From contig CAZWYI010000006.1 in NCBI GenBank assembly GCA_964638155.1, positions 5,949 through 69,948 of the forward strand: 64,000 nt of DNA. The letters are read 5' to 3'. How positions within the stretch are numbered: position 1 is the stretch's first letter; each line of letters opens with the position of its first letter. This document shows positions 6,447-30,280 of the stretch, in pieces. The notes under the pieces were generated by a model, which had not been told where the DNA came from, did no database searches, and saw nothing but the letters and a program-made list of their open reading frames with translations. A program made the translations under genes and the position numbers. Source of the DNA: an uncultured Thermoplasmatales archaeon (GTDB lineage Archaea > Thermoplasmatota > E2 > DHVEG-1).

Positions 6447-7361
6447 TTATTCTAATTTAAATAAATCTGTACTAAGATATCTATCGCCCCTATCTGGAAA
6501 AATAGTGACAATTACTCCTTTTTCTGCATTTTTTGCTGTTTCAATTGATGCAAGCATAGCTGCACCACTGCTCATTCCTGCAAAAATCCCTTCATTTTTT
6601 GCAAGTTTTCTTGTCATCTCAAATGCTTTTTCAGATTCTATCATAACTTCTATATCTATATTTGATGGATCATAAATTGATGGGACTATTGCCTCTTCCA
6701 TATTTTTTAACCCCTGGATGTAGTGTCCAGTTACCGGATGAGCACATACGATTTTTACATTTGGATTGCATTCTTTTAAATATTTTCCAACACCCATAAT
6801 TGTTCCAGAGGTTCCAATTGCTGATACAAAATAATCAATTCTACCGCGGGTTTGTTCTAGTATTTCTCCTGCTGTTGTTTCATAGTGTGCAATTTTATTA
6901 TATTTATTTGTAAATTGATCTGTGCAAAAATATTTATCAGGATGTTTTTTGAGAAGTTCATTTACTTTTAAAATAGCTCCATCTGTACCCTTTTCTGCAT
7001 CTGTGAGAATTATATCAGCACCGAATGCCTTAATTGTTTTCCTTCTTTCTTTTGATACCGCACTGCTCATAACTATTGAAACATTGTATCCTTTAATTGA
7101 ACCTATCATGGATAGAGCTATACCAGTATTTCCTGATGTTGCTTCAATAATTGTTTTATCTTTTGTTAGTTTCCCCTCAGATTCAGCTTGCTCTATCATT
7201 TTTAAAGCTATCCTATCTTTAATACTTCCCCCAGGATTATTTCCTTCAAGCTTTGCATAAATTTCAACATTAGGATTAGGATTAAGATTATTTATTTTTA
7301 CAAGAGGAGTATTTCCTATTAAATCAAGAATGTTATTTCCTACATTTTTGTTGTTTATCAT
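6447..7361 (-). CDS. cysK: cysteine synthase / O-acetylserine sulfhydrylase (PLP-dependent)
   Basis: KLEGNNPGGSIKDRIA PLP-lysine motif and a GTSGT-like glycine loop; 304 aa. Confidence 0.85.
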   Translation of the reverse strand: MINNKNVGNNILDLIGNTPLVKINNLNPNPNVEIYAKLEGNNPGGSIKDRIALKMIEQAESEGKLTKDKTIIEATSGNTGIALSMIGSIKGYNVSIVMSSAVSKERRKTIKAFGADIILTDAEKGTDGAILKVNELLKKHPDKYFCTDQFTNKYNKIAHYETTAGEILEQTRGRIDYFVSAIGTSGTIMGVGKYLKECNPNVKIVCAHPVTGHYIQGLKNMEEAIVPSIYDPSNIDIEVMIESEKAFEMTRKLAKNEGIFAGMSSGAAMLASIETAKNAEKGVIVTIFPDRGDRYLSTDLFKLE

Positions 7362-10791: not shown

Positions 10792-11178
10792 TTAAAAATG
10801 TTTATGTTTTCCCTGTCCTCGGAAGGCGTGCTCTTGACATGCATCTCCTTCGTTTGCTTTTTTTAATTCTTCATTTTTATATGCATCTATTGCATCTTTT
10901 ACTGTTCCTTTTGCTCCAATATATACAGTTATTCCAAAATCAGAAAACATGCCGATTGCTTTTCTACCTAGGCCACTGCAGAGCATTACATTTACTCCTT
11001 CTTTAGTTAGAAGTTCAGGTGGATATCCTCTTCCGCCCATGTGATGGCTGTCATTTGAAATCACTTTTACATCATTTTTATCAAGATCAACAATTGTATA
11101 AGTTGGAACTCTTCCGAAATGTTCTCCTACTGTTTCATCAAGTCCTCTATTTCCATTTGTTGGTATACATACTTTCAT
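10792..11178 (-). CDS. NifX/NafY-like dinitrogenase FeMo-cofactor-binding domain protein
   Basis: 128 aa; MKVCIPTNG…GEHFGR…TIVDLD pattern of the Nitro_FeMo-Co fold. Confidence 0.7.
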   Translation of the reverse strand: MKVCIPTNGNRGLDETVGEHFGRVPTYTIVDLDKNDVKVISNDSHHMGGRGYPPELLTKEGVNVMLCSGLGRKAIGMFSDFGITVYIGAKGTVKDAIDAYKNEELKKANEGDACQEHAFRGQGKHKHF

Positions 11179-11183
11179 AATTT

Positions 11184-11549
11184 TTACCTCATTCCATGAT
11201 GGCTTCCTACATTAGGATTTTCTGTTTCATTTAAATCTCCTTTTTTGTAGCTTTCGATAGCCTCTTTTATAGAACCTCTTGCACCAGTAAAAATCTTCAT
11301 TCCGCCTGCAACAAGAGTTCTGTGTGCGTTTGGCCCGATGTTTCCTGTGATTAGTACTTCTGCTCCGTTGTTTACAACTGTTTCAGCAGCTTTAATCCCT
11401 GCTCCTCCTGTGGCCATACTACTTTCATTTGAAATTACATTAAAATCCATATTTTCAGAATCAACTATTAAAAAATATTTACAGCGTCCAAAACGCTGGT
11501 CAACTTCTGCATTTAAATCTTTATCTGTTGATGATACTGCAATTTTCAT
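11184..11549 (-). CDS. NifX/NafY-like FeMo-cofactor-binding domain protein (paralogue)
   Basis: 121 aa; MKIAVSS…VDQRFGRCKYFLIVD…. Confidence 0.7.
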   Translation of the reverse strand: MKIAVSSTDKDLNAEVDQRFGRCKYFLIVDSENMDFNVISNESSMATGGAGIKAAETVVNNGAEVLITGNIGPNAHRTLVAGGMKIFTGARGSIKEAIESYKKGDLNETENPNVGSHHGMR

Positions 11550-13527: not shown

Positions 13528-16500
13528 TTAGAAAAATTTCCTAACAATTACAGTATCTTCTGCTGGATTACCTGCATAGTCATAAGCAACTGTTTTTATT
13601 GTATGTTTACCAAATGTTTTTTCTTCCCAGTTAAAAACTAAATCACCACTTGTAATATTTGCCTTTAATTTATTGTCAACAAAGATTTTTACATAGTTTA
13701 TTCCTGATATATTATCAAAAGCATCAATTTCTATTTCTATTTCTCCTAATATCAAAGGAATTGGAAATGAAAATAGTTCCTTGTTTCTTAAATAAAATTT
13801 GTTTTCAGGTTTTAAAATTTGAACATTAGGATTAGAGTTATCCTCTCCATAAAAATAATCAGGTTTTATTTCTCTATCATTATTTCCATCTCCATCATCA
13901 TCAAAATAAATTATAGGATCGACTGCCTCACCATCAATATTCATTTTACCTATTGAATTTTCAAATATTGATATGTTATTGTAATAAAGATATGTTCTAT
14001 TACCATCAGATAACTGTTTAGTTGTTGAAAAATTAAAATCTCCATCGCCTGTTCCTTTCATTATAAATTTATATTTACCATTCCCATAAGGAATAGATAT
14101 TTCTTCGATTGTGTGATTCCATTTTGAAGAATTTGTTTCATTTGTTACAAATAGCGGATCAAAAGAATAAGAAACATTTTCAATTTCAAGATCTACCCCA
14201 TTTGTGTTATTTCTACCAACATGGTTACCATATTCATCATATAGGTGTAACTCAACTGGGCATCCTGTGATTTTTGCTTTAAATTTATCTTCAACAAATT
14301 TTTCTTTGTGAACTATGATTTCATCTTGTTTGAATTCTATTATCCTAAAGGCAGTATCAAGTGTGGAATCTGTTATAACATACAAAGGTTTATCATCTTC
14401 GTGTATGGGGAAATTTGTATAACCCGACCAATAATATGTTCCATCCATATCTCGATTGTATACACGATTTTTGTGTGTATGCCCACTAAGAACAATATCT
14501 ACATCATACTTATCGCAAGCATCTAGAAATCTTTCTTTTTCAGATGTAATGCATCCTGCATCCCAAATTCCATCTTCAGTATATCCTCCCCAGTGTTTCC
14601 AGTCTTCATTTTTTCTATAATATATAACTGGGTGATGCATAAATATAATTTTTTTATAATCACTTGTATCTTTATTGTTGTCACTACCATCTAAGTCATC
14701 TAATTCTGATTCTAATAGGTCTACTTGTTCGGGATCAAGACCTGTCCCTACAGGCGGCCACTTTGTTCCAGTGGTAAGTTTTTTATCATATCCTGAATCT
14801 ATAGATATAATACACGTTTTTGTTGTCTCGTCTTTCCAAGATTTATACCACGTTTGATGATCAATATATTCAATGTAATTATCAAGTACATCTGTCCAAG
14901 GTATTGAACCTTTTAAAGGAGAATATATTCGGTGATCATGGTTGCCAGGGCAATGATATATAGGTATCGTAAAATCAGAATTATGAATCCAATTAATATA
15001 CCAATTAGATTTTATTCCGTTAATTAAACTCCTGTATTCTAAATAATTATTTGCACCAATATCTCCTGATCCCCCACAATCAACAACATCTCCTGAGTTA
15101 ATGACAAATGAAGGCGGAATTGCAAAGTTTTTTATTTTCTTTAAAGTTTTATCTAAATTGCTAACACTGTTTTCTTTATCTAGATAAATTGGCCATTCTT
15201 CATGTATAATATGAGTATCAGTGATATGCACAAAATAAAAATTAGCATAAATTCCAGCATATGAACATCTAGATTCTAGTCCATTTTTATCTTTTATTTC
15301 TGCATGGATTTCTTTTTCCCCACCAGAATAAAAAGTCCATTTCAATATTTTATCATCAGCATTCCAACTATCAAAACTAGTATCCCAGTCAAACCATTCA
15401 GTCCAAATAAAACCATCATCGACCGTTCCATTTTGATCCTCATCACTTAGGAATCTTACTTTATCTATATTGTCTGTATAATCATAAATATGGATATCAA
15501 ACTCTAGCCCCATATCAATATTATCTATTTCTTTTCCATCTTTTTCAAGCCTTAAAAAACATTGAGGCATATCTGATAGTTCAAAATATAGATGATCTGA
15601 AAATAAACTCCAGCCATTAGTGTTATGAGAGCGCATATTCCATCTATATTTTTCTCCATATTCCAATATATCGCTGGGTAACTCATTAAAGGATGTTCCG
15701 TATATCTTTCCATCTGTATAATCTTCTTCACTATCATAAACTAAATTTGCTGGACCATAAGGATATTTACTAATATATAATCCATAATAATCAGCATCTG
15801 GCAGATTTTCCCATTGGAATGTAGGTGTATTTTCATATATAATTTCTCCTGGTTCAGAATTATATCCTGGGGAAATAAGTGTTGGTGGATTAGGTGGTTG
15901 ATTACCGCCCATTTTATATTTATAAAAAATATCATAGTCGTTTCCACTTTCATCGTAATCAGTATCATCCTGCCAGGCAACATGTACTATTTCACTACTG
16001 TCCACAAACAAAGAAGGATCCCAACAATATGTGCTTTCTGTGCTTACCAGTTCAGGGGAACTCCAGCTACCCTCAGCCGACTTATGTTTATAAAAAATAT
16101 TAGGGCCACTGCCGCTATCATCATAATCCATGTAATCAGTCCAAACAACATGTACCATGTCACTGCTATCTAAAAACAATGAGGGACAATAACTTGAGCT
16201 TGCGCTTTCCGTGCTTACTACTTGAGTAGTAGTCCAGATGTCATCAGCCGACTTGTATTTGTAAAATATATCATAATCACTACCACTTTCTCCATAAGAT
16301 GCTCCATCTTGCCAGGCAACATGAATCGTGCCGTTGCTTTCTACCGTCGATGAAGGATATTTACTATTACTGGTACTTTCTGTACTTACTACCTCTGTTG
16401 AACTCCAGCTTTCACCCGCTGGCTTGTATTTGTAAAAAATATCATAGTCGCTCTCACTTTCTACATAAGGTGTTTCATCCTGCCAAATAACGTGAATTGT

Positions 16501-17253
16501 GCTACTGCTGTCCACTATCAATGAAGGTTGTGAACTACTTCTTGTACTTTCTGTGCTTACAACTTCTGTTGCACTCCAACCACCGCCAGCTGGCTTGTAT
16601 TTGTAAAAAATGTCAGTATCACTACTGCTTCCACTATAATTAGTAACATCCTGCCAGGCAACATGAATCTTTCCAGCACTGTCCACGGCCAAAGAAGGAC
16701 AATAACTATATCCATTACTTTCTGTACTTACTACCTCTGTTGTACTCCAGCTTCCACCTGCAGACTTATACTTATAATAGATATCAAAGTCATTCCCACT
16801 ATCGCTATAACTAGTCCAATCATCCCATACTACATGAATCGTTCCAGAATTGTCCACAGTCAATGAAGGAGAAGAATAACTATCACTTGTGCTTTCTGTG
16901 CTTACCACTTCAGTTGTACTCCAGCTACCACCTGCAGGTTTGTATTTGTAAAAAATATCAATATCGCTACCGCTATTCCCATATGCCGTTTCATCCCGCC
17001 AGGCAATGTAAACTGTTCCACTGCTATCAACAACCAACGAACTATACTTGCTATCACTGCTGCTTTCTGCGCTTACTAATTCAGTAATATTCCAACCATC
17101 ATTATTTTTTTCTGTGGATAAGGAAACTGGTTTAGCATTTGTGAAGTTCTCTTCAAAGTCTTCATATTTTCTTAAACTTGGCACGAGACTTGCTACAATA
17201 AACAAGACTATAATAAAAAAAGCCAAATATCTGCTTGGTTTTACCTTTTTCAT
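13528..17253 (-). CDS. secreted multidomain protein: signal/TM anchor, 8 tandem ~50-aa BNR/Asp-box-like propeller repeats, FN3-like domain, calcineurin-like metallophosphoesterase, C-terminal Ig/CARDB-like domain
   Basis: N-terminal hydrophobic stretch (LAFFIIVLFIVASLVP). Repeats of the form DxDIFYKYK.AGGSWS.TEVVSTES….PSL.VD..G.IHV.WQD. Metallophosphoesterase motifs HITDTHI, GDVVDCG, GNHDH, FMHHP, GHTH. Confidence 0.8.
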   Translation of the reverse strand: MKKVKPSRYLAFFIIVLFIVASLVPSLRKYEDFEENFTNAKPVSLSTEKNNDGWNITELVSAESSSDSKYSSLVVDSSGTVYIAWRDETAYGNSGSDIDIFYKYKPAGGSWSTTEVVSTESTSDSYSSPSLTVDNSGTIHVVWDDWTSYSDSGNDFDIYYKYKSAGGSWSTTEVVSTESNGYSYCPSLAVDSAGKIHVAWQDVTNYSGSSSDTDIFYKYKPAGGGWSATEVVSTESTRSSSQPSLIVDSSSTIHVIWQDETPYVESESDYDIFYKYKPAGESWSSTEVVSTESTSNSKYPSSTVESNGTIHVAWQDGASYGESGSDYDIFYKYKSADDIWTTTQVVSTESASSSYCPSLFLDSSDMVHVVWTDYMDYDDSGSGPNIFYKHKSAEGSWSSPELVSTESTYCWDPSLFVDSSEIVHVAWQDDTDYDESGNDYDIFYKYKMGGNQPPNPPTLISPGYNSEPGEIIYENTPTFQWENLPDADYYGLYISKYPYGPANLVYDSEEDYTDGKIYGTSFNELPSDILEYGEKYRWNMRSHNTNGWSLFSDHLYFELSDMPQCFLRLEKDGKEIDNIDMGLEFDIHIYDYTDNIDKVRFLSDEDQNGTVDDGFIWTEWFDWDTSFDSWNADDKILKWTFYSGGEKEIHAEIKDKNGLESRCSYAGIYANFYFVHITDTHIIHEEWPIYLDKENSVSNLDKTLKKIKNFAIPPSFVINSGDVVDCGGSGDIGANNYLEYRSLINGIKSNWYINWIHNSDFTIPIYHCPGNHDHRIYSPLKGSIPWTDVLDNYIEYIDHQTWYKSWKDETTKTCIISIDSGYDKKLTTGTKWPPVGTGLDPEQVDLLESELDDLDGSDNNKDTSDYKKIIFMHHPVIYYRKNEDWKHWGGYTEDGIWDAGCITSEKERFLDACDKYDVDIVLSGHTHKNRVYNRDMDGTYYWSGYTNFPIHEDDKPLYVITDSTLDTAFRIIEFKQDEIIVHKEKFVEDKFKAKITGCPVELHLYDEYGNHVGRNNTNGVDLEIENVSYSFDPLFVTNETNSSKWNHTIEEISIPYGNGKYKFIMKGTGDGDFNFSTTKQLSDGNRTYLYYNNISIFENSIGKMNIDGEAVDPIIYFDDDGDGNNDREIKPDYFYGEDNSNPNVQILKPENKFYLRNKELFSFPIPLILGEIEIEIDAFDNISGINYVKIFVDNKLKANITSGDLVFNWEEKTFGKHTIKTVAYDYAGNPAEDTVIVRKFF
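15870..17060. repeat. intragenic tandem repeats (~150 nt unit, ~8 copies) encoding the propeller blades of the 1241-aa protein
   Basis: Recurring nucleotide strings such as gcttgtatttgtaaaaaatatca…ctaccact near 16255, 16425, 16595 and 16940. Confidence 0.6.
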
Positions 17254-18493: not shown

Positions 18494-20002
18494 ATGAAAG
18501 AATCACTAGATTTCATCTACAAACAGCAAAAAGAGCTATCAGTTCTTGGAGGAATTGGAGCTTTAATTGGCTGGGATCAAATGACCTATATGCCAAAGAA
18601 GGCTGCAATTGATAAATCAGAACAATCAGCACTTCTTTCAAAGATTGCACATAACAAAGTTATATCAAACAAATTCTGGAATCATATTGAAAAACTAAAC
18701 AAAGAAACAATATACAAAGATCTGTCAGAGAAAGACAAAAATGTTGTAAAAAGACTATATATAGATGTAGAAAAAGCTAGATGCGTTCCATCTAAGTTTG
18801 TAGAAAAAATGTCAAAGACTACAACTCTAGCCTATCAAGAATGGGAAAAAGCAAGAGAAAAAAATGATTACAAAAGTTTTTCTCCGCATCTTAAAAAAAT
18901 AATAGATTTAGAAAAAGAATACTGTACTTTTTTTGAAATACCTGGTCCAAGATATGATACTCTACTTGATGACTATGAAGAAGGAATGACTGTAGACAAA
19001 TTAAGAAAAGAATTTACTTATCTGAAAAAAGAGCTTATAAAAATACTTGATAAAATAAAGGATTCAAATGTTTACAAAAATCAAAAAGAAATTAATATTA
19101 AAATAAGCCCAGATGATCAAAAAAAACTGTGTAATAAAATAATTAAAAAAATGCTTCTTCCTGAAGATAAAACCCGTCTTGATGAATCAACCCATCCTTT
19201 TACTACAAGCATGGGTGATGACGATGTTAGAATTACTACAAGTTTTAAAAGAAAAGGACCTCTTTTTTCCTTTTTTTCAACAATACATGAGGCAGGACAT
19301 GCCTTATATGAACTAGGAATGCCAAAAGATGGATACAAAGATACTGTTATTTCTGATTCACCATCTCTTGGTCTACATGAATCTCAATCTCGGTTCTGGG
19401 AAAATATGATAGCTAGAAGTACTTTTTTCTGGAGTAATTTCTATCAAGATTTTAAAAAAACAAATCCTAGTTTTTTTAAAAAAATTGATTTTGATTACTG
19501 GTATAGAATGGTAAACTTGGTTAAACCCTCTTTTATTAGAGTAGAAGCAGATGAGTTAACCTATCCATTGCATGTGATACTTCGTTTTGAAATTGAAACA
19601 GATATGATGCAGGATAAAATTAGTGTAAAAGAGTTACCGCAGGTATGGAATGAAAAAATGGATGAAATGCTTGGAATCATTCCAGAGAATGACAATGATG
19701 GAATACTTCAGGATATGCACTGGAGTGGAGGGAATATAGGCTACTTTCCAACATATGCAATAGGTACGATATATTCAGCTCAGATTTACAATCAAATTTG
19801 TAAAGAAAATAAAAACATTGAATCTGAAATAGAAGAAGGTAATTTTAAAAATATTTTAAATTGGCTTAGGGGGAATATTCACAGTAAAGGGAGAAGTATG
19901 ATGGCTGATGATATTGTAAAGGAGTGCTGTGGAGAAGGGCTTAATTCAAAAGTATTTGTAGATTATATTAAAGAAAAATATTATGGAATATATCTTTCAT
20001 AA
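18494..20002 (+). CDS. M32 family carboxypeptidase (carboxypeptidase Taq-like)
   Basis: HEAGHALYE (HExxH) plus STHPFTTS and DVRITT motifs typical of M32; 502 aa. Confidence 0.85.
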   Translation: MKESLDFIYKQQKELSVLGGIGALIGWDQMTYMPKKAAIDKSEQSALLSKIAHNKVISNKFWNHIEKLNKETIYKDLSEKDKNVVKRLYIDVEKARCVPSKFVEKMSKTTTLAYQEWEKAREKNDYKSFSPHLKKIIDLEKEYCTFFEIPGPRYDTLLDDYEEGMTVDKLRKEFTYLKKELIKILDKIKDSNVYKNQKEINIKISPDDQKKLCNKIIKKMLLPEDKTRLDESTHPFTTSMGDDDVRITTSFKRKGPLFSFFSTIHEAGHALYELGMPKDGYKDTVISDSPSLGLHESQSRFWENMIARSTFFWSNFYQDFKKTNPSFFKKIDFDYWYRMVNLVKPSFIRVEADELTYPLHVILRFEIETDMMQDKISVKELPQVWNEKMDEMLGIIPENDNDGILQDMHWSGGNIGYFPTYAIGTIYSAQIYNQICKENKNIESEIEEGNFKNILNWLRGNIHSKGRSMMADDIVKECCGEGLNSKVFVDYIKEKYYGIYLS

Positions 20003-20014
20003 TTTTATTTCAGG

Positions 20015-20036
20015 GGTTCAAATCCCTTCCCCTGCA
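20015..20036 (+). repeat. 22-nt direct repeat GGTTCAAATCCCTTCCCCTGCA (tRNA T-arm/acceptor-3'-like), upstream copy
   Basis: Identical 22-mer at 29320..29341. It resembles a tRNA T-loop plus 3' acceptor strand, but no 5' half is present. Confidence 0.7.
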
Positions 20037-20053
20037 TTTTTATATGCTTTTTA

Positions 20054-20112
20054 ACAGGAGAAAAATATGATTTTATTCAATTTTATTCCCTTGCACGATT
20101 TCACCGGTGAAA
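20054..20112 (+). repeat. repeat motifs ACAGGAGAAAAA (20054-20065) and palindrome TTTCACCGGTGAAA (20099-20112), upstream copies
   Basis: Both motifs recur at 29284-29295 and 29303-29316 respectively. Confidence 0.6.
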
Positions 20113-20309
20113 ATTAATAAAGAGTAGAAAGTATATTCTCATATCTTTAATATTTTTCTTAAAAAATTACGCAAAATCTTTATATAACAAATTAATAGAG
20201 TTTGGTGAGTCTGCAATATTTTTTTTATATATGTGGATTTAATATTTCGTGAGGAGTAAGGGGTAGGTAAAATCATTAATTTAAGGTTTGAGTGGAGGTA
20301 TTTTTTGTG

Positions 20310-23300
20310 AATAAAAGCGGTGTATGTATTCTTATAGTATTGATGCTAGTGTTTTCTTTTGTTGGTGTGACAAATGCAGATTTTTTATCAGAAAATGATA
20401 TAGATGTCAATGGTTCTGATTCTAATTTTATTAATAAAGATTTTAATAGCATAGATGGTGTCCCTGATGGTCTTTCTGATGATGAATGGTCAGGTATTTT
20501 GGAAAGCATTGAAAATTATGATTATCAGCTTGGTTATGATGATCTTTTAGATTGTTATCATGCTGAGAATAGTGTTCATGGTTTAGATGTAAGGTTTGGT
20601 TCAGATGGTGGTGTTAAGACTGTTTTTTCTGATGAAAATTCTTTTTCGTTGAAACCAGTTGGTTTTGGTTATAGTGGTTTTTTATCGGGTTTGAGTAATG
20701 ATCCAGATGTTGAGGTAGGTTTTAATAGAATAGATTATAGTTACTCTGAAGATTTTATTGGTTGGTATAAAAATTCTGTTGATGGTTTGGAGCATGGTTT
20801 TGATATTCTTGAGCCGATTGAACCTCGTTTGAACTCTGAGATCTGTATTGAGATTTCTTATGATTCTAGTTTTACTGCTGAAAAAGTTGGTGATGGTATT
20901 GTGTTTTCTGATGAAAGTGGTGTTTCTCAGTTAAAATATGATAAACTTAAGGTTGTTGATGCAAAAGGAAGTACTCTTCCGTCTTCAATGAGTTTAGAAG
21001 AAGAAACAAGATCTATTTGTTTATCCTTTGATGACAGTGATGCGGTGTATCCTGTGGTTGTTGATCCATTGGTTACCAGTTTTGTAAAGAAAATTACTGC
21101 ATCTGATGGTGCAGCAGAGGATCGTTTTGGTTATTCCGTTTCTATATCTGGTGATACTATTGTAGTTGGTGCATATTGGGATGATGTTGATGGTAATACT
21201 GATCAGGGTTCGGCGTATGTGTTCACTCGGAATAATCAGACTATGGATGATTGGGGACAGGTAAAAAAACTTACTGTATCAGATGGTGCAGCAGAGGATT
21301 ATTTTGGTGGTTCTGTTTCTATTAGTGGTGATACATTGGTTGTTGGCGCATATAAAGATGATGTTGATGGTAATACTGATCAGGGTTCGGCGTATGTGTT
21401 CACTCGTAATAATCAGACTATGGATGATTGGGGCCGGGTAACGAAATTGACGGCGTCTGATGGTGCATCATCTGATCAATTTGGTGGTTCTGTTTCTATT
21501 AGTGGTGATACATTGGTTGTTGGTGCATCTTTTGATGATGTTGATGGTAATACTGATCAGGGTTCGGCGTATGTTTTTAGTCGTAATAATGGTAGTATGG
21601 ATGGTTGGGGTCAGGTAACGAAATTGACGGCTTCTGATGGTGCAGCATATGATTATTTTGGTTATTCTGTTTCTATTAGTGGCGATACATTGGTTGTTGG
21701 TGCATCTTATGATGATGTTGATGGTATTGCGGATCAGGGTTCGGCGTATGTTTTTAGTCGTAATAATGGAGGTATGGATGGTTGGGGTCAGGTAACAAAA
21801 TTGACGGCGTCTGATGGCGCAGAAGATGATTATTTTGGTTGGAGTGTTTCTATCAGTGGTGATACATTGGTTGTTGGCGCATATGGTGATGATGATGTTG
21901 ATGGTAATAATTTTCAGGGTTCGGCGTATGTGTTTACTCGTAATAATCAGACTATGGATGATTGGGGTCAGGTAACAAAGTTGACTGCTTCTGATGGTGC
22001 AGAAGATGATTGGTTTGGTACTTCTGTTTCTATCAGTGGTGATACGATCGTGGTTGGTGCAGATAAAGGTGATGGTGGTAATAGAAATCAGGGTTCGGCG
22101 TATGTGTTTACTCGTAATAATCAGACTATGGATGACTGGGGTCAGGTAACGAAATTGACGGCTTCTGATGGTGCAACACATGATTATTTTGGTTATTCTG
22201 TTTCTATTAGTGGCGATACATTGGTTGTTGGTGCATTTGGTGACGAATCTTTCTCTGGTTCTGCATATACTTACGTTATGGAAGGTGATGCTTGGACACA
22301 GATTGCTAAACCAGTTGCTTCTGATGGCGAAGAAGATGATTATTTTGGTTATTCTGTTTCAATTAGTGGCGATACGATTGTGGTTGGTGCAAGGGATGAT
22401 GATGGCTGTAAGGGTTCTGCGTATGTGTATACTCGTAATAATCTAACCGCAGACGACTGGGGTCAGGTGGTGAAGCTTACTGCTTCTGATGGTGAAGCAG
22501 GTGATGAGTTTGGTTGTTCTCTTTCTATATCTGGTGATACGATTGTGGTTGGTGCACATTGGGATGATAATCCTGATAGATCTGGTTCTGCGTATGTATA
22601 TACGCGGAATAATGAAACTGCTGATGACTGGGGTGAGGTAACAAAACTTACTGCATCAGATGGTGAAGCAAGTGATTATTTTGGTTATTCTGTTTCAATT
22701 AGTGGCGATACGATTGTTGTCGGTGCATATGGTGATGATGATGGTGGTGATTATCAGGGTTCTGCGTATGTATTCGTTCGTAATAATCAGACTGCAGATG
22801 ACTGGGGGCAGGCAGCAAAACTGAATGCTTCTGATGGCGAAGAAGATGATTATTTTGGTCGTTCTGTTTCAATTAGTGGTGATACGATTGTGGTTGGATC
22901 AGATGGTGATGATGATAATGGTGGTGAGTCTGGTTCTGCGTATGTATATACGCGGAATAATGAAACCGCTGATGACTGGGGTGAGGTAACAAAACTTACT
23001 GCATCAGATGGTGCAGCAGATGATGAGTTTGGTCATTCTGTTTCTATATCTGGTGATACGATTGTGGTTGGTGCATATTATGATGATGATAATGGTCTTA
23101 GTTCTGGTTCTGCGTATGTGTTCACGCGGAATAATCAAACCGCAGATGACTGGGGTGAGGTAACAAAATTAACTGCATCTGATGGTGCGGAATTTGATAA
23201 TTTTGGTTGTAGTGTTTCAATATCTGGTGATACGATTGTTGTCGGCGCCAATTATGATGATGATAATGGTGATAATTCTGGTTCTGCATATGTTTTTACT

Positions 23301-26300
23301 CGTAATCAAGGGGGTGCTGATAGTTGGGGTCAGGTAAATAAGTTGACTGCGTCTGATGGAGAAGCACAGGATGTTTTTGGTTGGTCTGTTTCTATTAGTG
23401 GTGATACTATTGTTGTTGGAGCAAGAGATGGTGATGGTGAAGGAACTAATTCTGGTGCTGCGTATGTTTATTATGAATATTCAATTCCCCCCCCACTTGA
23501 CCCACCAACAAGTTTTAAGGCAAACTCAGTAAATTCCACAAAAATAGATTTATCCTGGACTAAAGCATCAACAGCTTCACATACACATATACAACGAAAC
23601 ACAGGTAGCTATCCAACCAGTATCACTGATGGAACCACAGTATACAATGGAACCGCTTCAACCTACTCAGATACTAGTTTAACAGAAGGAACAACATATT
23701 ATTACCGTGCTTGGAGTTATAATGCAACTGATAACGAATATAGCAGCAGCTATGTCTCAGCAACAAGCACAGCAAATAATATTCCAATGATATCAGGCGA
23801 ATCTCCAAGTAATGAAAGTACGAATATAGATCCTCTTACAATATCTTCAATATCAATAAATGACTCTGATAGCGATACCATGAACATCACCTGGTACAGC
23901 AACACCAGCGGATCATGGACTGTTTTTGGAACAAACAACAGTGTTTCAAATGGTACATATCATCAGACCAACAACAATTTCAGTTCATATAATGAAACAT
24001 ATTACTGGAATGTAACGGTAACTGATGGTAAAGATACTAACTCCAGTAACATTTTTTATTTTTCCACAAAAATAGGATCGCCCACGGTAACAACAAACAG
24101 TTCAACAGGGATAGAAGAAACCAATGTTACCCTACAAGGATATCTTTCATCAAATGGTGGAGAAGCATGTACGGTCCGATTTGAATATGGTACTACTAGT
24201 GATTATGGGACTAATACCAGTAATCAGACAAAAAACAGTGGACAAGAATATTCAGAGGAAATAACTGGGTTGACTGAAGGTCAACTTTATCATTATCGGG
24301 CATATGCAAACAATACCGCAGGGAGTAATACTGGTAGTGATATGACCCTGCTGACTAAACCAGAAGTGCCAACAAACCTACAAGCCCAAACAAACAGTAG
24401 CTCTCTGATTTATCTTACTTGGACAACGGCAGATGGGGCGAATAATACCTATATTGAACGAAATACAGCAGCAGACTGGGCACGAAGCACGGGTTCAGAA
24501 GTGTATAATGGTAGTTTATCCTCTTATGAAAACACAGGGCTTACTGATGGTACAACCTACTATTACCAGGCATGGTCATATACCAATTGGAGTGATCTGC
24601 ATCAATATTCAGATGATAATGATAGTGCATTTAATACAACAAAACATGTACCAACTCTGACGGGTGAATCACCCAGTAACCAAACAACAAATGTAAACCC
24701 ATTACCCACCTGTTCAATCACCGTTAATGACCTTGATGGTGATAATATGGATCTTACCTGGTATAGTAATTCATCAGGGCCATGGGTGGTATTTGGGTCT
24801 AACACCAGTGTTAGTAATGGTACATATTATCAGACGAATAGTAATTTCAGCAGTTATAATACCACTTATTATTGGAATGTAACCGTGAATGATAGCAATG
24901 ATACTAACAATAGTGATATTTTCTGGTTTACCATAAGAAAGCATTATCTGCCGGATCCACCAAATAGTTTTACTGCCACTGTTAACAGTTCAACTGAATT
25001 GTATCTTTCTTGGTCAAAAGGAACGAATACATCATTTACGAGAATACAGCGAAAAACCAGTGGTTATCCAAACAGCATAAGTGATGGAACAAATATCTAT
25101 AATGATACTGGTTCGTCATATTCTGATACTGGTCGTTCTGAAGGAACCACTTATTATTATCGTGCTTGGAGCTATAATGTCACAGATGGTTTATGGTCAA
25201 CCAATAACGCTAGTGCTGCAAATACAACCAACTCTATACCAGTTATAACGAATGAAGGACCAAGTAATGAGAGCACAAATATTGATCCCATACCGCAGAT
25301 GAACATCACCATAAATGATATTGATGGTGATAGTATGAATCTTACTTGGTATAGTAATTCTTCAGGGTCATGGGTTATCTTTGGAACAAATAATAGTGTG
25401 GGTAATGGTACGTATCATCAGACTAATAGTAATTTCAGTAGTTATAATACCACATATTACTGGAATATCACAGTAACAGATGAAAAAGATACAAACACAA
25501 GCTCTGTTTTCTGTTTTACAATTAGAAATCAGTATATTCCTGATCCTGCGGATACTTTTACCGCGACAACAATAAACAGTACAAAAATTAATCTAGAATG
25601 GGACAAAGGATCCAATGCAGATTATACAAGAATTCAACGAAAAACCAATGTTTATCCCACAGGTATAAGTGATGGCACCAATATCTACAACGACACCAGC
25701 ACCTCATATAACGACACTGGCCTTACACAAGGAACCACTTATCACTATCGAGCATGGAGCTATAATAATACTGATAACTCATGGTCAGAAACTAATATTT
25801 CAGTTTATAATACCACAAATTATCTACCAATCATAACTGCAGAATCACCAGATGATGAAAGTACAAATATTAACATTCTACCTACTCTTGCTATAACCGT
25901 AAATGATTTTGAAGAAGACACCATGAATGTTACATGGCGGTGGAACAATAGTGGTACATGGAATATTTTTGGAACAAACAATAGTATCGGCAACGGAACG
26001 TATTATCAAACTAATAGTAATTTCAGTAGTTATAATATCACATATTACTGGAATGTAACTGTGAGTGATAGTACGAATACGAACATTAGCTCTGTTTATC
26101 AGTTCACCATTAAAAACAATGATGTCATCCGGGTTGATCCAAATAAACCAGATGATTGGTATGATGATCTTCATGTGAGAAATATCACTGAAGCAATAAA
26201 CAATGTAACTGAAAATGGAACATTGTATGTTTGGGAAGGAACGTACAATGAAACACTGACCATTAATAAATCAATAAACATCGTTGGCAATGGAACCGGT

Positions 26301-29225
26301 AGTACGATTATTGATGGTGGGGAGAATGGTAGTGTTATCACGGTTAATGCAGATAATGTAAGTATCTCAGGGTTCACTATTCAAAATAGTTCTAATTCAA
26401 GTGGAAGTGCAGGGATACAGATCAATGGGAATCATACCACGGTTTCAAATACAACTATTTCAGATTCCTGGAATGGGATCATCTGCGGGAATCGTAGTTT
26501 TCCAACCACTAATAACACTTTTGAAAACAATACGTTTACCAATAACAGTGATGGTGCAGGAATCCTGGTAACGAATACATCAGATGGAACCAGTATTAGA
26601 AACAATACCTTCCAACATAATTATGATGGTGTTAAAGTAACATCAGATAACATTACAATTGATAATAACACTATCCAGAATTCAACTAATAACGGAATAA
26701 ACCTTGAAGATAGTAATGATTCTACAATCACCAATAATATCTGTAACCAAAACCAGTATGGTATTGTTCTCAATAATACCAATGTTATAACTATTCATAC
26801 AAACAATGTTTCAGATAATACAAAGGCTGGATTATTTTTTACAGATACATATAATACGACAACATATAATAATTATTTAGATAACATTAATCAGACATTG
26901 TTTTCTGGTTTAAATATCGATACTGTTTGGAATACAACAAAAACAAGTGGTACAAACATTATTGGTGGAAACTATCTTGGCGGTAATTACTGGAGTGACT
27001 ATAATGGGTACGATACCGATGGCGATGGACTTGGAAATCTAAACTATACTATTAACCAAACACATAATTTCTATGATATATTAGCATTAACAGTTGCAAA
27101 TATGGAGTCTGTACCAGGGGGTATAAACCCTGCAAATGGAAGTAGTAACCAGAATCCACATAGTTTAAACTGGACAATAGCAATTAGTGATTCAGATGGA
27201 GATCTATTTGACTGGACAATAGAATGTGCAGGTCAGAGTAATACTGGTTCAAACGAAGAAAATGGTACAAAAAATATAGTTCTAACATCACTGTCATATA
27301 ACACAACATACAAAGTATATGTTAATGTGTCAGATGGAACATGTTGGGTGAATGAAAGCTATAATTTTTCAACAAGAACTCAGTATCTGCCAACCCTGCC
27401 AACTAGTTTTACTGCAACAACAATAAACCCTGTAAATATCACTTTAACATGGTCTAAAGGAACAAATACGGATTACACCCGGATACAAAGGAAAACAACA
27501 GAGTATCCTGAAACCATTTCAGATGGAACAAATGTGGCAAACACTACAGGTACAACACATTCAGATACAGTATCTGAAGGAGATACCTACTACTACCGTG
27601 CATGGAGCTATAATATTACTGATAACGTATGGTCGACAAACAACGCTAGTGATTACAATATCACAACATATTACGCAGATATTCCTAGTAAAACTCCTGT
27701 AAATGATTCTACGGGTGTTTCATTATTGCCTGTTTTGCAGGTTTCTGCAAACGACTCTGATGGTGATACTATGAATATAACATGGTATAGCAATAGCAGT
27801 GGCACTTGGCAGGTTTTTGGAACAAACAATAGCGTTTCAAATGGAACATATAGTATGAGTAACAGTAACTTTAGCCAGTATTCAACAAAATATTTCTGGA
27901 AAGTAACAATTTTTGATGGAACTTATTGGGTAAATAATACTTATTGTTTTACAACTATTGCAAACAATCTACCTATTCAATCAAATCATACTATTGTAAA
28001 CAGCAGTATAAGTTACAATCTATCTTTGAATACTACCATTTCGGCACTATATCCATCTTATCTATCAATTGATTTTTCAGATGAAGAAAATCATTCAATG
28101 GCAATCAACATCATTACAAATGCATCTGGCACTTGGCAGGTTGTTAATTCAAGTTCAGGGCTGTCTAATGGCACGTATAAAGCATATAATTTCTCATGGA
28201 TCAATCAATCTAGCACAACATATTATTTGTGGGTCAATCTTTCTGATGGACATGATTGGAATAACAAATCATACACAATAACGACACTTGGCGAATATGT
28301 ACCATTTAAACCAATTAGTTTTACTGCAACTGCGGCAAGTTCAAGTAAAATCAATTTAGCTTGGACAAAAGGAAACAAAGCTAATAAAACCTATATTAGA
28401 TACAAGGAGGGATCAACTGCACCAGTTAATCGTTCTGATGGAACACTACTTTATAATGGAACAGATACATCTACTAGTGCAACATCCCTTTCATCAAGTA
28501 CTACATATAGTTTTAAAGCCTGGAGTTACAATGACTCTGGAAACTGTTTTAGCATATTCAACTCGACTTGCAGTGCTACATCAAATTCAGCAAGTACTGG
28601 TGGTACTACTTCACCTGGTACTGGAACTACAGCTCCATCAGATGATCCTGAGGATTCAGATGGTGATGGTATTCCTGATGAGGAGGATGAATTCCCTGAT
28701 GATCCCAGTGAATCAAAGGATTCAGATGGTGATGGAATAGGTGATAACTCTGATAACAGCCCAGAGGTTCCTAATCCTGATCAGACTGATAATGATAATG
28801 ATGGTGTAGGTGATGCAAGTGATACGGATGATGATAACGATGGTGTTTCTGATGATATGGAAGAAGAAATAGGTAGTGATCCTAAAACAGATGGTGATGT
28901 TGAAGATATTGATCCTTTTATTTCAGATAGTTATGTTGCTGATACCAATGGTGATGGCAGATATGATAAGTTCTATAATTCTAGTTCTGGTGTTAAAACA
29001 GATGTTATGTATGTGGAATCAGAAGGTTATTATATAGATAGTGATGGCGATGGATCCTGGGATTATGTTTATAATCCAACAGATGGAAGTCTTACTCCTG
29101 CTGAAGAAGAAACAACAGATGGGGGTAACTTATGGTTTATAATTGGTGGTGCTCTTGTCGGTGTTTTAGTATTGCTATTTATTATTATTTTTGTCTTTAA
29201 AAGACGTAAAAAAGACAAAAAATAA
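20310..29225 (+). CDS. giant (~2970 aa) surface protein: signal peptide, ~14 FG-GAP/integrin-alpha-like propeller repeats, ~7 FN3 + accessory-module repeats, right-handed parallel beta-helix (NosD/pectin-lyase-like), thrombospondin type-3 Ca-binding repeats, C-terminal TM anchor with a basic tail
   Basis: GTG start at 20310, 8 nt after a GGAGGT RBS; signal NKSGVCILIVLMLVFSFVGVTNA. FG-GAP units SAYVFTRNN…DWGQVTKLTASDG…FGYSVSISGDTLVVGA. FN3-like units …YRAWSYN…. Beta-helix repeats N.S.GI.L…N.I.NN. TSP3 repeats DSDGDGIPDEEDEFPDDP. C-terminus LWFIIGGALVGVLVLLFIIIFVFKRRKKDKK. The ORF track's start is 20292. Confidence 0.85.
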   Translation, partial: NKSGVCILIVLMLVFSFVGVTNADFLSENDIDVNGSDSNFINKDFNSIDGVPDGLSDDEWSGILESIENYDYQLGYDDLLDCYHAENSVHGLDVRFGSDGGVKTVFSDENSFSLKPVGFGYSGFLSGLSNDPDVEVGFNRIDYSYSEDFIGWYKNSVDGLEHGFDILEPIEPRLNSEICIEISYDSSFTAEKVGDGIVFSDESGVSQLKYDKLKVVDAKGSTLPSSMSLEEETRSICLSFDDSDAVYPVVVDPLVTSFVKKITASDGAAEDRFGYSVSISGDTIVVGAYWDDVDGNTDQGSAYVFTRNNQTMDDWGQVKKLTVSDGAAEDYFGGSVSISGDTLVVGAYKDDVDGNTDQGSAYVFTRNNQTMDDWGRVTKLTASDGASSDQFGGSVSISGDTLVVGASFDDVDGNTDQGSAYVFSRNNGSMDGWGQVTKLTASDGAAYDYFGYSVSISGDTLVVGASYDDVDGIADQGSAYVFSRNNGGMDGWGQVTKLTASDGAEDDYFGWSVSISGDTLVVGAYGDDDVDGNNFQGSAYVFTRNNQTMDDWGQVTKLTASDGAEDDWFGTSVSISGDTIVVGADKGDGGNRNQGSAYVFTRNNQTMDDWGQVTKLTASDGATHDYFGYSVSISGDTLVVGAFGDESFSGSAYTYVMEGDAWTQIAKPVASDGEEDDYFGYSVSISGDTIVVGARDDDGCKGSAYVYTRNNLTADDWGQVVKLTASDGEAGDEFGCSLSISGDTIVVGAHWDDNPDRSGSAYVYTRNNETADDWGEVTKLTASDGEASDYFGYSVSISGDTIVVGAYGDDDGGDYQGSAYVFVRNNQTADDWGQAAKLNASDGEEDDYFGRSVSISGDTIVVGSDGDDDNGGESGSAYVYTRNNETADDWGEVTKLTASDGAADDEFGHSVSISGDTIVVGAYYDDDNGLSSGSAYVFTRNNQTADDWGEVTKLTASDGAEFDNFGCSVSISGDTIVVGANYDDDNGDNSGSAYVFTRNQGGADSWGQVNKLTASDGEAQDVFGWSVSISGDTIVVGARDGDGEGTNSGAAYVYYEYSIPPPLDPPTSFKANSVNSTKIDLSWTKASTASHTHIQRNTGSYPTSITDGTTVYNGTASTYSDTSLTEGTTYYYRAWSYNATDNEYSSSYVSATSTANNIPMISGESPSNESTNIDPLTISSISINDSDSDTMNITWYSNTSGSWTVFGTNNSVSNGTYHQTNNNFSSYNETYYWNVTVTDGKDTNSSNIFYFSTKIGSPTVTTNSSTGIEETNVTLQGYLSSNGGEACTVRFEYGTTSDYGTNTSNQTKNSGQEYSEEITGLTEGQLYHYRAYANNTAGSNTGSDMTLLTKPEVPTNLQAQTNSSSLIYLTWTTADGANNTYIERNTAADWARSTGSEVYNGSLSSYENTGLTDGTTYYYQAWSYTNWSDLHQYSDDNDSAFNTTKHVPTLTGESPSNQTTNVNPLPTCSITVNDLDGDNMDLTWYSNSSGPWVVFGSNTSVSNGTYYQTNSNFSSYNTTYYWNVTVNDSNDTNNSDIFWFTIRKHYLPDPPNSFTATVNSSTELYLSWSKGTNTSFTRIQRKTSGYPNSISDGTNIYNDTGSSYSDTGRSEGTTYYYRAWSYNVTDGLWSTNNASAANTTNSIPVITNEGPSNESTNIDPIPQMNITINDIDGDSMNLTWYSNSSGSWVIFGTNNSVGNGTYHQTNSNFSSYNTTYYWNITVTDEKDTNTSSVFCFTIRNQYIPDPADTFTATTINSTKINLEWDKGSNADYTRIQRKTNVYPTGISDGTNIYNDTSTSYNDTGLTQGTTYHYRAWSYNNTDNSWSETNISVYNTTNYLPIITAESPDDESTNINILPTLAITVNDFEEDTMNVTWRWNNSGTWNIFGTNNSIGNGTYYQTNSNFSSYNITYYWNVTVSDSTNTNISSVYQFTIKNNDVIRVDPNKPDDWYDDLHVRNITEAINNVTENGTLYVWEGTYNETLTINKSINIVGNGTGSTIIDGGENGSVITVNADNVSISGFTIQNSSNSSGSAGIQINGNHTTVSNTTISDSWNGIICGNRSFPTTNNTFENNTFTNNSDGAGILVTNTSDGTSIRNNTFQHNYDGVKVTSDNITIDNNTIQNSTNNGINLEDSNDSTITNNICNQNQYGIVLNNTNVITIHTNNVSDNTKAGLFFTDTYNTTTYNNYLDNINQTLFSGLNIDTVWNTTKTSGTNIIGGNYLGGNYWSDYNGYDTDGDGLGNLNYTINQTHNFYDILALTVANMESVPGGINPANGSSNQNPHSLNWTIAISDSDGDLFDWTIECAGQSNTGSNEENGTKNIVLTSLSYNTTYKVYVNVSDGTCWVNESYNFSTRTQYLPTLPTSFTATTINPVNITLTWSKGTNTDYTRIQRKTTEYPETISDGTNVANTTGTTHSDTVSEGDTYYYRAWSYNITDNVWSTNNASDYNITTYYADIPSKTPVNDSTGVSLLPVLQVSANDSDGDTMNITWYSNSSGTWQVFGTNNSVSNGTYSMSNSNFSQYSTKYFWKVTIFDGTYWVNNTYCFTTIANNLPIQSNHTIVNSSISYNLSLNTTISALYPSYLSIDFSDEENHSMAINIITNASGTWQVVNSSSGLSNGTYKAYNFSWINQSSTTYYLWVNLSDGHDWNNKSYTITTLGEYVPFKPISFTATAASSSKINLAWTKGNKANKTYIRYKEGSTAPVNRSDGTLLYNGTDTSTSATSLSSSTTYSFKAWSYNDSGNCFSIFNSTCSATSNSASTGGTTSPGTGTTAPSDDPEDSDGDGIPDEEDEFPDDPSESKDSDGDGIGDNSDNSPEVPNPDQTDNDNDGVGDASDTDDDNDGVSDDMEEEIGSDPKTDGDVEDIDPFISDSYVADTNGDGRYDKFYNSSSGVKTDVMYVESEGYYIDSDGDGSWDYVYNPTDGSLTPAEEETTDGGNLWFIIGGALVGVLVLLFIIIFVFKRRKKDKK
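21090..23470 (+). repeat. intragenic tandem nucleotide repeats (~170-nt unit) encoding the FG-GAP blades
   Basis: Near-identical stretches such as ggttcggcgtatgtgtt[c/t]actcg[g/t]aataatcagactatggatga[t/c]tgggg at ~21211, 21391, 21921 and 22091. Confidence 0.7.
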
Positions 29226-29231
29226 AATACA

Positions 29232-29258
29232 TTTTTTTTTCTTTTTTTTATATTTTTA
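29232..29258 (+). terminator. oligo-T terminator tract after the giant gene (archaeal-style T-runs)
   Basis: TTTTTTTTTC TTTTTTTTT ATATTTTT immediately after the TAA at 29223-29225. Confidence 0.45.
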
Positions 29259-29283
29259 GATTTAAATGATTAAAAATGTTTTT

Positions 29284-29341
29284 ACAGGAGAAAAAAGTAT
29301 TTTTTCACCGGTGAAACTAGGTTCAAATCCCTTCCCCTGCA
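29284..29341 (+). repeat. downstream copies of ACAGGAGAAAAA, TTTCACCGGTGAAA and the 22-nt tRNA-3'-like repeat
   Basis: 29284-29295, 29303-29316 and 29320-29341. The order is X-Y-Z here versus Z-X-Y upstream of the giant gene. Confidence 0.65.
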
Positions 29342-29413
29342 TAAATTACCATTTATAAAGTTATAGCTTAATTCATTTCCATGTGAGTTATAAAAAAATG
29401 AAAGATTATTAGT

Positions 29414-30280
29414 TTAAACGTGCTCTTCAATTAAATCTGCGATATCTGTAGGAAATTGGGCGATTTTAACACCTGCTTCTTTGAATGCTTTTACTTTTGA
29501 TGCAGCTGTTCCTTTCCCTCTGGCAATAATTGCTCCTGCATGCCCCATTCTTTTTCCTGGTGGTGCAGTTCTTCCCGCAATAAAGGCAAACACAGGTTTT
29601 GAGATTTGTTCTTTTATGTATTCTGCAGCATCTTCTTCAGCTGTACCACCGATTTCTCCCACTAACACCATTGCTTTTGTTTCTTTGTCTTTTTCAAAAG
29701 CATCTAGAGAATCAATAAATGTAGTCCCAATAATCGGGTCGCCTCCAAGACCAATACAGGTACTCTGTCCAATTTTCTTTTCAGAAAGAGAGTTTACTAT
29801 TTCATAAGTAAGGGTTCCCGATCGACTGGCCACACCAATATTTCCTTTAAGGAATATACTTCCCGGAAGGATTCCTATTTTTGTCTTCCCTGGGCTTGCA
29901 ATACCTGGGCAATTTGGACCGATAATTACTGCATTTTTGTATTTTGCATAATGAACAAAATCCATTGCATCATGAAAAGGAATATTTTCAGTAATTACTA
30001 CAATAGTTTTTATTCCAGCATCAAGTGCTTCAAAGACAGCATCTTTTGCATAACGCGCAGGAACAAGGACAAGTGAAGTGTTTGCATGAGTTTCATTTAC
30101 ACCTTTTTGTACGTTATCAAAAATTGGTACACCATTGACATCCTGTCCACCTTTACCAGGTGTTACTCCTGCAACAACATTAGTTCCAAAGTTTTTCATC
30201 TCACCAATATGGAAAACTCCTTGATGACCGGTTGCACCTTGAACAATAACCTTGCTTTTTTCATCTACAAAAATTGCCAT
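29414..30280 (-). CDS. sucD: succinyl-CoA synthetase alpha subunit
   Basis: MAIFVDEKSKVIVQGATGHQG…, the CoA-binding GxxG motif and the phosphohistidine loop (GHAGA); 288 aa. Confidence 0.9.
   Translation of the reverse strand: MAIFVDEKSKVIVQGATGHQGVFHIGEMKNFGTNVVAGVTPGKGGQDVNGVPIFDNVQKGVNETHANTSLVLVPARYAKDAVFEALDAGIKTIVVITENIPFHDAMDFVHYAKYKNAVIIGPNCPGIASPGKTKIGILPGSIFLKGNIGVASRSGTLTYEIVNSLSEKKIGQSTCIGLGGDPIIGTTFIDSLDAFEKDKETKAMVLVGEIGGTAEEDAAEYIKEQISKPVFAFIAGRTAPPGKRMGHAGAIIARGKGTAASKVKAFKEAGVKIAQFPTDIADLIEEHV

Follow-up and report, generated by a model that had tools for sequence, protein, structure and literature searches.

Within a 64,000-nucleotide (nt) stretch of contig CAZWYI010000006.1 (hereafter, the window), a giant gene on the + strand (20292–29225) encodes an FG-GAP-repeat surface protein of 2977 amino acids (aa; 2972 aa from the GTG at 20307), with a signal-like N-terminal segment and a C-terminal membrane anchor. 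Its chromosomal flanks are, on the left, the gene of an M32 carboxypeptidase (18494–20002, + strand; Pfam Peptidase_M32, E = 4e-164) and, on the right, sucD, identified by Pfam as the alpha subunit of succinyl-CoA ligase (29414–30280, − strand). Three short motifs, designated Z, X and Y, lie between flank and gene on both sides. We consider it likely that the giant gene is the only cargo of a cassette of about 9.4 kb, without an integrase and flanked by attachment (att) sites, in which the two Z copies are the attL and attR cores.

At the left site, Z (GGTTCAAATCCCTTCCCCTGCA, 20015–20036) is followed by an exact X (ACAGGAGAAAAA, 20054–20065) placed 17 nt 3' of it as the right-arm (P') copy, by a partial direct copy of the 3' half of Z inside the same arm (TTCCCTTGCA, 20086–20095), and by an exact Y (TTTCACCGGTGAAA, 20099–20112). 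At the right site the left (P) arm comes first, with an exact X that begins 36 nt before Z (29284–29295) and an exact Y (29303–29316), and the second Z closes the array (29320–29341), the full X-Y-Z unit spanning 29281–29345. All of these elements are on the + strand, at the positions where the initial annotation had placed Z, X and Y; the 12-nt palindrome it saw in Y is really a perfect palindrome of 14 nt, and its 22-mer Z, right in sequence and place, belongs to an identity that extends to 23 nt when the following T is included. Direct repeats of tRNA origin, identical over those 23 nt at 20015 and 29320, bracket the insert. The spacers of the two sites share no further non-trivial block of at least 8 nt, the remaining spacer being unrelated. 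Two matches to Z exist in the 64 kb, even with up to 3 mismatches, where 0.01 would be expected by chance, and two copies were reached in 0 of 100 shuffled sequences. X and Y likewise have no further copies in the window. Directly 5' of the left Z stands TTTCAGG, which resembles the tRNA-like 'TCCAGG' of array-start sites.

A covariance model built from the related X-Y-Z units of other contigs gave three significant matches in the window, at 29281–29345 (69 bits, E = 1e-11), 19975–20040 (39 bits) and 20051–20099 (31 bits), the last aligned as a unit with an internal deletion that keeps X and the partial Z 3' half. On 1.12 Mb of DNA from relatives the same model found two weak matches, one of which is the site after M32 in contig L004. 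Because the significant matches sit at the two window sites only, with those two weak ones in the relatives, the X-Y-Z unit is not a generic or dispersed intergenic motif of the repetitive extragenic palindrome, miniature inverted-repeat transposable element or terminator kind; a scatter of the motifs over many unrelated sites, which the initial annotation had named as the outcome that would speak against its proposal, was not seen.

The origin of Z became clear when metagenome contigs were scanned by exact match, which brought in at least 120 contigs; counts of Z sites here and below are among the matches listed. Of 140 exact copies, 65 form the 3' end of tRNA genes called by ARAGORN, and 64 of these were called tRNA-Leu, with anticodons CAG (25), UAA (19, with introns), CAA (11), GAG (6) and UAG (3), the remaining one being miscalled. 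Z is common to all five tRNA-Leu anticodon types found. It starts with the last two G on the 5' side of the T-stem, continues through the T-loop (TTCAAAT) and the 3' side of the T-stem (CCCTT), and ends with the 3' side of the acceptor stem (CCCCTGC) and the discriminator A. Z derives from the tRNA-Leu 3' end of an archaeal lineage, in agreement with the T-arm, acceptor strand and discriminator that had been read from the motif alone, and the complete tRNA that it should terminate is found, in metagenome contigs, as these tRNA-Leu genes.

Neither window site is itself a tRNA gene, as had also been stated. ARAGORN calls no tRNA gene in the whole window, also with introns allowed, and Rfam gives nothing at gathering score there, its permissive local scans returning sub-threshold noise without a tRNA match. 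The T-stem is better formed in the upstream Z (AGGGG/CCCTT) than in the downstream one (CTAGG/CCCTT). We rejected a split, permuted or intron-bearing tRNA: when X...Y and Y-Z were threaded by hand, neither a D-arm nor an anticodon arm emerged, and allowing introns in ARAGORN added nothing. An intact target tRNA gene is missing from both ends of the window element, where the left Z abuts the M32 stop codon; other family contigs, such as L087, L171 and L200, do have an intact tRNA-Leu at one end. A separate occurrence of Z was seen in an archaeal head-tail virus contig with a terminase (L081, from IMG/VR), where an exact copy at 6755–6776, lacking both a tRNA and X-Y, directly follows the last gene (481 aa) at 93 nt from the end of the contig; it is probably a provirus border or an attP site.

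Among the 75 exact Z copies outside tRNA genes, 44 have X upstream. With relaxed matching, the Z-like sites number 190, and 70 of them are preceded within 62 nt by X, matched with no more than 1 mismatch, a few of these calls being chance X-like matches within tRNA-Leu genes. The X-to-Z spacing is sharply bimodal: 35–36 nt in 32 units, which include the downstream site of the window at 36 nt, and 47 nt in 22 units, which contain either a TAATTATTATCC...AGAATTTAACCGGTAAT spacer or a duplicated TTTACCGGTAAT. Across the family the arm-plus-core unit measures 58–69 nt. Since the loci were ascertained by exact Z, both the variation of Z and the frequency of the family are biased. On the other side of the core, ACAGGAG follows 14–17 nt downstream of Z after 28 Z sites in other contigs, and many sites continue after Z with X, then a partial copy of Z and a palindrome like Y. 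X (aCAGGaGAAa) is also an imperfect inverted repeat of the Z 3' end, a pairing that is beyond covariation testing because Z was fixed by the search.

Y varies while keeping its symmetry. Its variants TTTACCGGTAAA, TTTAATATTAAA, TACATGTA and TTTACTAGTAAA, like the TTTCACCGGTGAAA of the window, are all palindromic to the centre, and related units show ACCGGT, ACATGT, AATATT or ACTAGT at this position, with compensating changes. When 31 short units were aligned, the two central pairs of Y changed on both sides in 13 and 5 sequences. Single-strand folding of the units gave z-scores of −0.9 to +1.2 relative to shuffled sequences and no long hairpin. As Y is palindromic to its centre with compensating changes, and folding is no better than in shuffled sequence, Y looks like a dyad-symmetric site in double-stranded DNA rather than a hairpin. 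That behaviour would also suit the alternative raised in the initial annotation, in which Y could be a shared operator, but Y sits in the att arms. A Y type specific to each cassette and alike in both arms is true of the window and of L166 and fails in L188, and we make no claim of it. Other candidates were discarded. A small open reading frame (ORF) across Y and Z (MFFTGN..GFKSLPLH) and another of 16 aa after the window X (from 20067) conserve neither start codon nor frame, the Y variants keeping dyad symmetry instead; a stable RNA or single-stranded DNA structure is contradicted by folding energies no better than shuffled, with matches to preQ1-II and Mu-gpT-DE far below thresholds.

Two further features of Z sites were observed. 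A recurrent ACAAAGATTTAWAT box about 15–25 nt after Z in L153, L133, L174, L200 and L193 looks like the archaeal promoter (TFB recognition element and TATA box) of the cassette gene, and cassettes would therefore carry their own promoters. In a third class of Z-like sites (L187, L132 at 1182, L101 at 8663, L151 at 496 and L087 at 8157), an inverted 5' half of Z directly precedes it (GAGATTTGAACC-TGA-GGTTCAAATCYC), forming a near-perfect palindrome over the T-arm; the L101 site is in opposite orientation, just beyond the recombinase gene of that contig.

The different motif orders at the two window sites are accounted for by contig L151. On its reverse strand, positions 532–668 hold contiguously X-Y-Z-17 nt-X-...TTCCCCTGCAC-GA-Y. 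The attR region of the window (29284–29342) aligns to 532–590 of that strand at 86%, the attL region (20015–20115) to 568–668 at 82%, and the two alignments overlap at Z. By their sequences, the two window sites appear to be one attP-like junction split at Z, although the junction was read from a contig and not from a detected circle. Given this contiguous X-Y-Z-X-partial Z-Y arrangement, the order that the initial annotation called a shuffled repeat is a circular permutation, while its observation that the three motifs flank the gene on both sides holds. The covariance-model match at 20051–20099, read as a unit with an internal deletion, is in independent agreement with the split junction.

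Neighbouring Z-like sites define 66 intervals, six of them empty (50–150 nt) and most 0.3–2.8 kb long with 1–3 genes; the longest interval with a single gene is that of the window, at 9283 nt. A crude test detects an N-terminus resembling a signal peptide in 49 of 91 cassette ORFs compared with 182 of 592 ORFs overall. Cassette ORFs occur in both orientations (55 on the Z strand, 36 opposite), and the Pfam domains of the cargo include right-handed beta-helix/NosD and PKD.

Pairs of contigs diverge at Z. L085 and L191 are 100% identical rightwards from Z and unrelated leftwards; in L087 and L171 a common tRNA-Leu(CAA) gene with its upstream DNA gives way to different sequence about 7 nt after Z; a left flank without a tRNA is common to L141 and L148, which part 8 nt past Z; L174 and L200 have the same cassette end but not the same sequence after Z; and L101 (tRNA-Leu UAA) and L111 (tRNA-Leu CAG) carry the same module on the right. 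These breaks, together with the presence of Z in tRNA-Leu genes, support the earlier proposal of att-like repeats derived from a tRNA 3' end. The comparisons show X-Y-Z units, judged by sequence, as the boundaries of a family of integrase-less cassettes, of which the window cassette would be one member and not a lone scar. Full-text searches of the literature found no description of small-cassette arrays bounded by a tRNA-Leu-derived X-Y-Z unit, and the family is apparently widespread and undescribed.

Several observations accompany these comparisons. L189 (841–9557) and L089 (3520–4726) have a common chromosomal left flank, with NifU and desulforedoxin-like genes and then a TCCAGG-Z site, and different inserts: 8.7 kb with a XerA-like recombinase, its partner and a serine resolvase in L189, and a 1.2-kb two-gene cassette in L089. 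Genes for IS200/IS605-type transposases lie near a cassette array in L198 (5042–5437; Y1 type, recognized by eye from the N-terminus) and near a homologous giant gene in L206 (1213–1608; precomputed Pfam Y1_Tnp), which may be coincidence. Contigs L002 (which ends at 9710), L001, L004 and L205 end in or shortly after Z or just after sucD, which suggests that Z-site repeats break the assemblies of contigs from metagenome-assembled genomes (MAGs) in this clade.

A candidate enzyme emerged from clustering the ORFs of the listed loci, in which a protein of about 315 aa is paired with one of about 181 aa. The pair begins 55–75 nt after Z in five contigs (L097, L101, L111, L175 and L189), and L097 has two divergent copies around one tRNA-Leu. 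The longer protein belongs to the tyrosine recombinases (Phage_integrase, E = 2e-25; SAM-like domain at the N-terminus), which places an integrase of the kind sought by the initial annotation beside Z in metagenome contigs. Among NCBIfam models it matches archaeal XerA best, with 149 bits where the cutoff is 220, it scores 41.7 bits with the integron-integrase model TIGR02249 (cutoff 265), and its nearest solved structure is XerA of Thermoplasma acidophilum (5HXY). By eye, GIRRRE, HCCRH and a C-terminal Y are its candidate catalytic motifs. The 181-aa partner has no family match and no solved-structure match; inspected by eye only, its N-terminus looks ribbon-helix-helix-like. No integrase lies inside the window element, where the giant gene is the only ORF of at least 100 aa not nested in another gene.

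The locus was then compared with its relatives. M32 places the window among MAGs of uncultured Thermoplasmatales/Thermoplasmatota, with best relatives at 80–81% amino-acid identity. A pair formed by exoIII and M32 is kept in about 70 Thermoplasmatales MAG contigs, with the genes upstream of M32 syntenic; the giant gene or sucDC follows M32 in 0 of about 40 relatives. The closest retrievable sucD homolog (94% identity) is in L202, within the same sucC-TrmB-ferredoxin synteny, and there an M32 gene 80% identical to that of the window is the convergent neighbour of sucD, with 43 nt between the stop codons and no giant gene. Homology between window and L202 extends on the left to 20022, inside the T-loop, into GGTTCAAA (L202 reads AAGGTTTCAAA), and resumes on the right near 29388, so the window-specific segment measures about 9.37 kb and includes about 46–47 nt between attR and the resumption (29342–29387, + strand).

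A Z-like site is found after the M32 stop codon in L001, L002 and L004, the L002 contig ending inside it. Small ribbon-helix-helix and PIN-like genes come next in L001 and L004, where the site is degenerating. It is absent in L003, L005–L007, L009, L016 and L018, and the other sucD relatives, L203–L205, have unrelated genes after sucD and no Z-like site. Because L001, L002 and L004 keep the Z-like site, with other cargo in L001 and L004, the sequences indicate that the position after M32 is an old Z site with variable cargo. The comparison of relatives that the initial annotation called for thus finds the insert missing in L202 and replaced by other cargo in L001 and L004, and its idea of an acquired or exchanged cassette gains from the adjacency of M32 and sucD in L202 and from the recombinase beside Z elsewhere; a syntenic giant gene without the repeats in all relatives, the other outcome that would have told against it, was not encountered, the gene not being syntenic.

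Mechanistically, we propose that a circular form of the cassette would carry X-Y-Z-17 nt-X-partial Z-Y and would recombine at Z with a chromosomal Z-like site just after M32. The product would be M32-Z-X-partial Z-Y-gene-X-Y-Z-sucD, which is exactly the arrangement in the window. A short inverted repeat (GGG..CCC) around a 7-nt loop, here the T-loop, is the type of core that many tyrosine recombinases use for crossover, and the crossover would fall within Z. X and Y would serve as arm motifs on both sides of the core, Y probably being bound by a dimeric accessory protein. Without a recombinase of its own, the cassette would depend for its movement on a XerA-like tyrosine recombinase and its 181-aa partner acting in trans, and we infer that it may be mobile at present.

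Several points weigh against this account. All metagenome loci were selected by exact Z, host taxonomy not being a criterion; no homolog of the recombinase or its partner was found in the 64-kb window, where the best tblastn hit has E = 0.09; the T-stem of attR is poor; and the closest homologs of the giant protein, in L206 and L207, have no Z, X or Y at their flanks. At its empty site L202 has no more than part of a Z-like sequence (AAGGTTTCAAAAT), and on the right the junction is found about 47 nt past attR, so a single clean integration into a site like that of L202 does not account for the window; L202 may itself have arisen by deletion, or an earlier, longer array may have been trimmed. 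Finally, homologous recombination between repeats of 23–60 nt could yield the same breakpoints.

This last point leads to the strongest of the other explanations, in which X-Y-Z units are conserved intergenic repeats of regulatory or structural function and the cassettes are swapped by ordinary homologous recombination, with no dedicated recombinase. The window without an integrase and the frequent promoter-like ACAAAGATTTAWAT boxes after Z would fit, and we nevertheless judge it unlikely: Z equals a tRNA 3' end, a classical target of site-specific integration, a tyrosine recombinase with its partner lies 55–75 nt from Z in five contigs, Z occurs on a virus contig, and the arm spacings are rigid at 35–36 or 47 nt. 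In addition, efficient homologous recombination generally needs more than 23 identical nt.

A role at the RNA level, in which X-Y-Z would resemble a tRNA 3' end and flag where transcripts are terminated, processed in the manner of a tRNA or stabilized, seems very improbable. The unit usually lies 3' of a gene, and X can pair with the Z 3' end in the manner of an acceptor stem (92% of helix 1 cells pair, with Z fixed by the search). This explanation is at odds with the 36 of 91 cassette ORFs that run opposite to the Z strand, with the tandem units that have no genes, with the folding z-scores of −0.9 to +1.2 and the lack of an Rfam match, and with a Y whose symmetry extends into its very centre, where a hairpin loop requires none; it also leaves the breakpoints at Z and the circular permutation unexplained. 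Marginally less probable still is that the Z copies are inert remnants of decayed tRNA-Leu genes or old segmental duplications, with X and Y present by descent or chance. The missing tRNA 5' half at both sites and the degenerating Z-like sites after M32 in L001 and L004 point that way, but decay would hardly leave Z copies identical over 23 nt and Y over 14 nt amid unrelated spacer, preserve one architecture across dozens of contexts unrelated to each other, or put different cargo at one site in different relatives. A canonical integron, which would have an IntI integrase and attC sites that fold, can be dismissed almost outright. The arrays of short, mostly single-gene cassettes, the site of about 60 nt and the enrichment in secreted proteins recall archaeal integrons (PMC9668308), but the recombinase reaches 41.7 bits against an integron-integrase cutoff of 265 and matches XerA better, no attC-like imperfect hairpin fold is present, the core comes from the 3' end of a tRNA, and arrays open with a tRNA-Leu gene rather than with an attI beside intI.

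The reading of the giant gene as cargo of an att-flanked cassette can be placed among known systems. In archaea, integration by tyrosine recombinases at tRNA genes, tandem integration and integrase loss are all known (PMC8371274). As in the tRNA-targeting integrative elements of the T-loop sublocation class (PMC8371274), the direct repeats correspond to the 3' part of a tRNA, from T-arm to discriminator, and related contigs have an intact tRNA-Leu at one end with a Xer-like integrase just inside. Unlike them, the window element carries a single cargo gene, lacks an integrase, has an intact tRNA at neither end, and sits at a secondary Z site behind a protein-coding gene; the family, moreover, consists mainly of single-gene cassettes of 0.3–3 kb with a conserved arm-plus-core unit of 58–69 nt.

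Bacterial cis-mobilizable elements (CIMEs), att-flanked and integrase-less, and their site-specific accretion are also known (PMC5704250). The window cassette is likewise att-flanked and without recombination or transfer genes, and the resemblance includes tandem arrangement with relatives at a tRNA-type site and presumed movement in trans. CIMEs are, in contrast, described as bacterial decay products of conjugative elements, whereas here the host is archaeal, the cassettes are much smaller and there are more of them, and conserved arms flank unrelated cargo. Archaeal integrons rely on canonical attC sites and IntI (PMC9668308). With integrons the family shares arrays of small cassettes, each ending in a recombination site of about 60 nt, a recombinase encoded outside the cassettes, and cargo rich in secreted proteins and toxin-antitoxin-like genes; it differs in having no IntI-type integrase, no attC-like fold, a tRNA-Leu 3' end as core, mixed gene orientation and promoter-like boxes borne by the cassettes. 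We therefore rate the window cassette as working like an integron or CIME array while being a member of neither.

Casposons are characterized by Cas1, terminal inverted repeats and duplications of about 14–15 bp, and their insertions can be tandem. They share with the present family the archaeal tRNA-Leu 3' end as target, and differ from it in that the repeats here are direct and at least 23 nt long, with X in direct orientation in both arms. No obvious Cas1 appeared among the ORF clusters of the listed loci, in which the tyrosine recombinase was found, although no Cas1 profile search was made. Casposons inserted at tRNA-Leu 3' ends are reported from Methanosarcina (PMC4779613).

As for the cargo itself, the nearest homologs of the giant protein are 62–65% identical over part of its length (contigs L206 and L207). 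L207 has a related FG-GAP/beta-helix giant gene (2205 aa) bracketed by a different direct repeat of about 170 nt, whose copies at 3949–4126 and 11124–11292 are 76–79% identical and 7175 nt apart; since this gene is bracketed too, direct-repeat bracketing of giant surface genes may be more general. The giant gene has 36–41% G+C and its flanks about 31%, a difference that is uninformative because other parts of the window are likewise richer. A second variable surface-type gene of the window (13528–17253, − strand) encodes a 1241-aa protein with BNR, metallophosphatase and Ig domains and fills a 4.3-kb gap, where in relatives L003 and L005 the same flanking genes are only about 0.4 kb apart; Z, X, Y and flanking repeats are all missing there.

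A broader proposal, a real possibility that falls just short of probable, is that Thermoplasmatota-type archaea have a so far undescribed integron-like system in which cassettes enter at tRNA-Leu genes or secondary Z sites, and a XerA-like recombinase with its partner, acting on X-Y-Z sites of 58–69 nt, shuffles promoter-bearing cassettes, mainly of surface and secreted proteins. If so, it would serve cell-surface diversification, with the giant adhesin-like gene of the window as its largest known cassette. It would be an archaeal counterpart of integrons and CIMEs built on a tRNA attachment site, and would explain the frequent breaks of MAG contigs at cassette loci, such as L002 ending inside Z. 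The X-Y-Z unit offers annotators a short signature for locating variable cassettes, and Z, X, Y, the recombinase and its partner are defined substrates for recombination assays in vitro. If the family works as we infer, it would give uncultured archaea of sediments and guts a simple route to exchange and reshuffle surface-protein genes, giant adhesin-like ones included.

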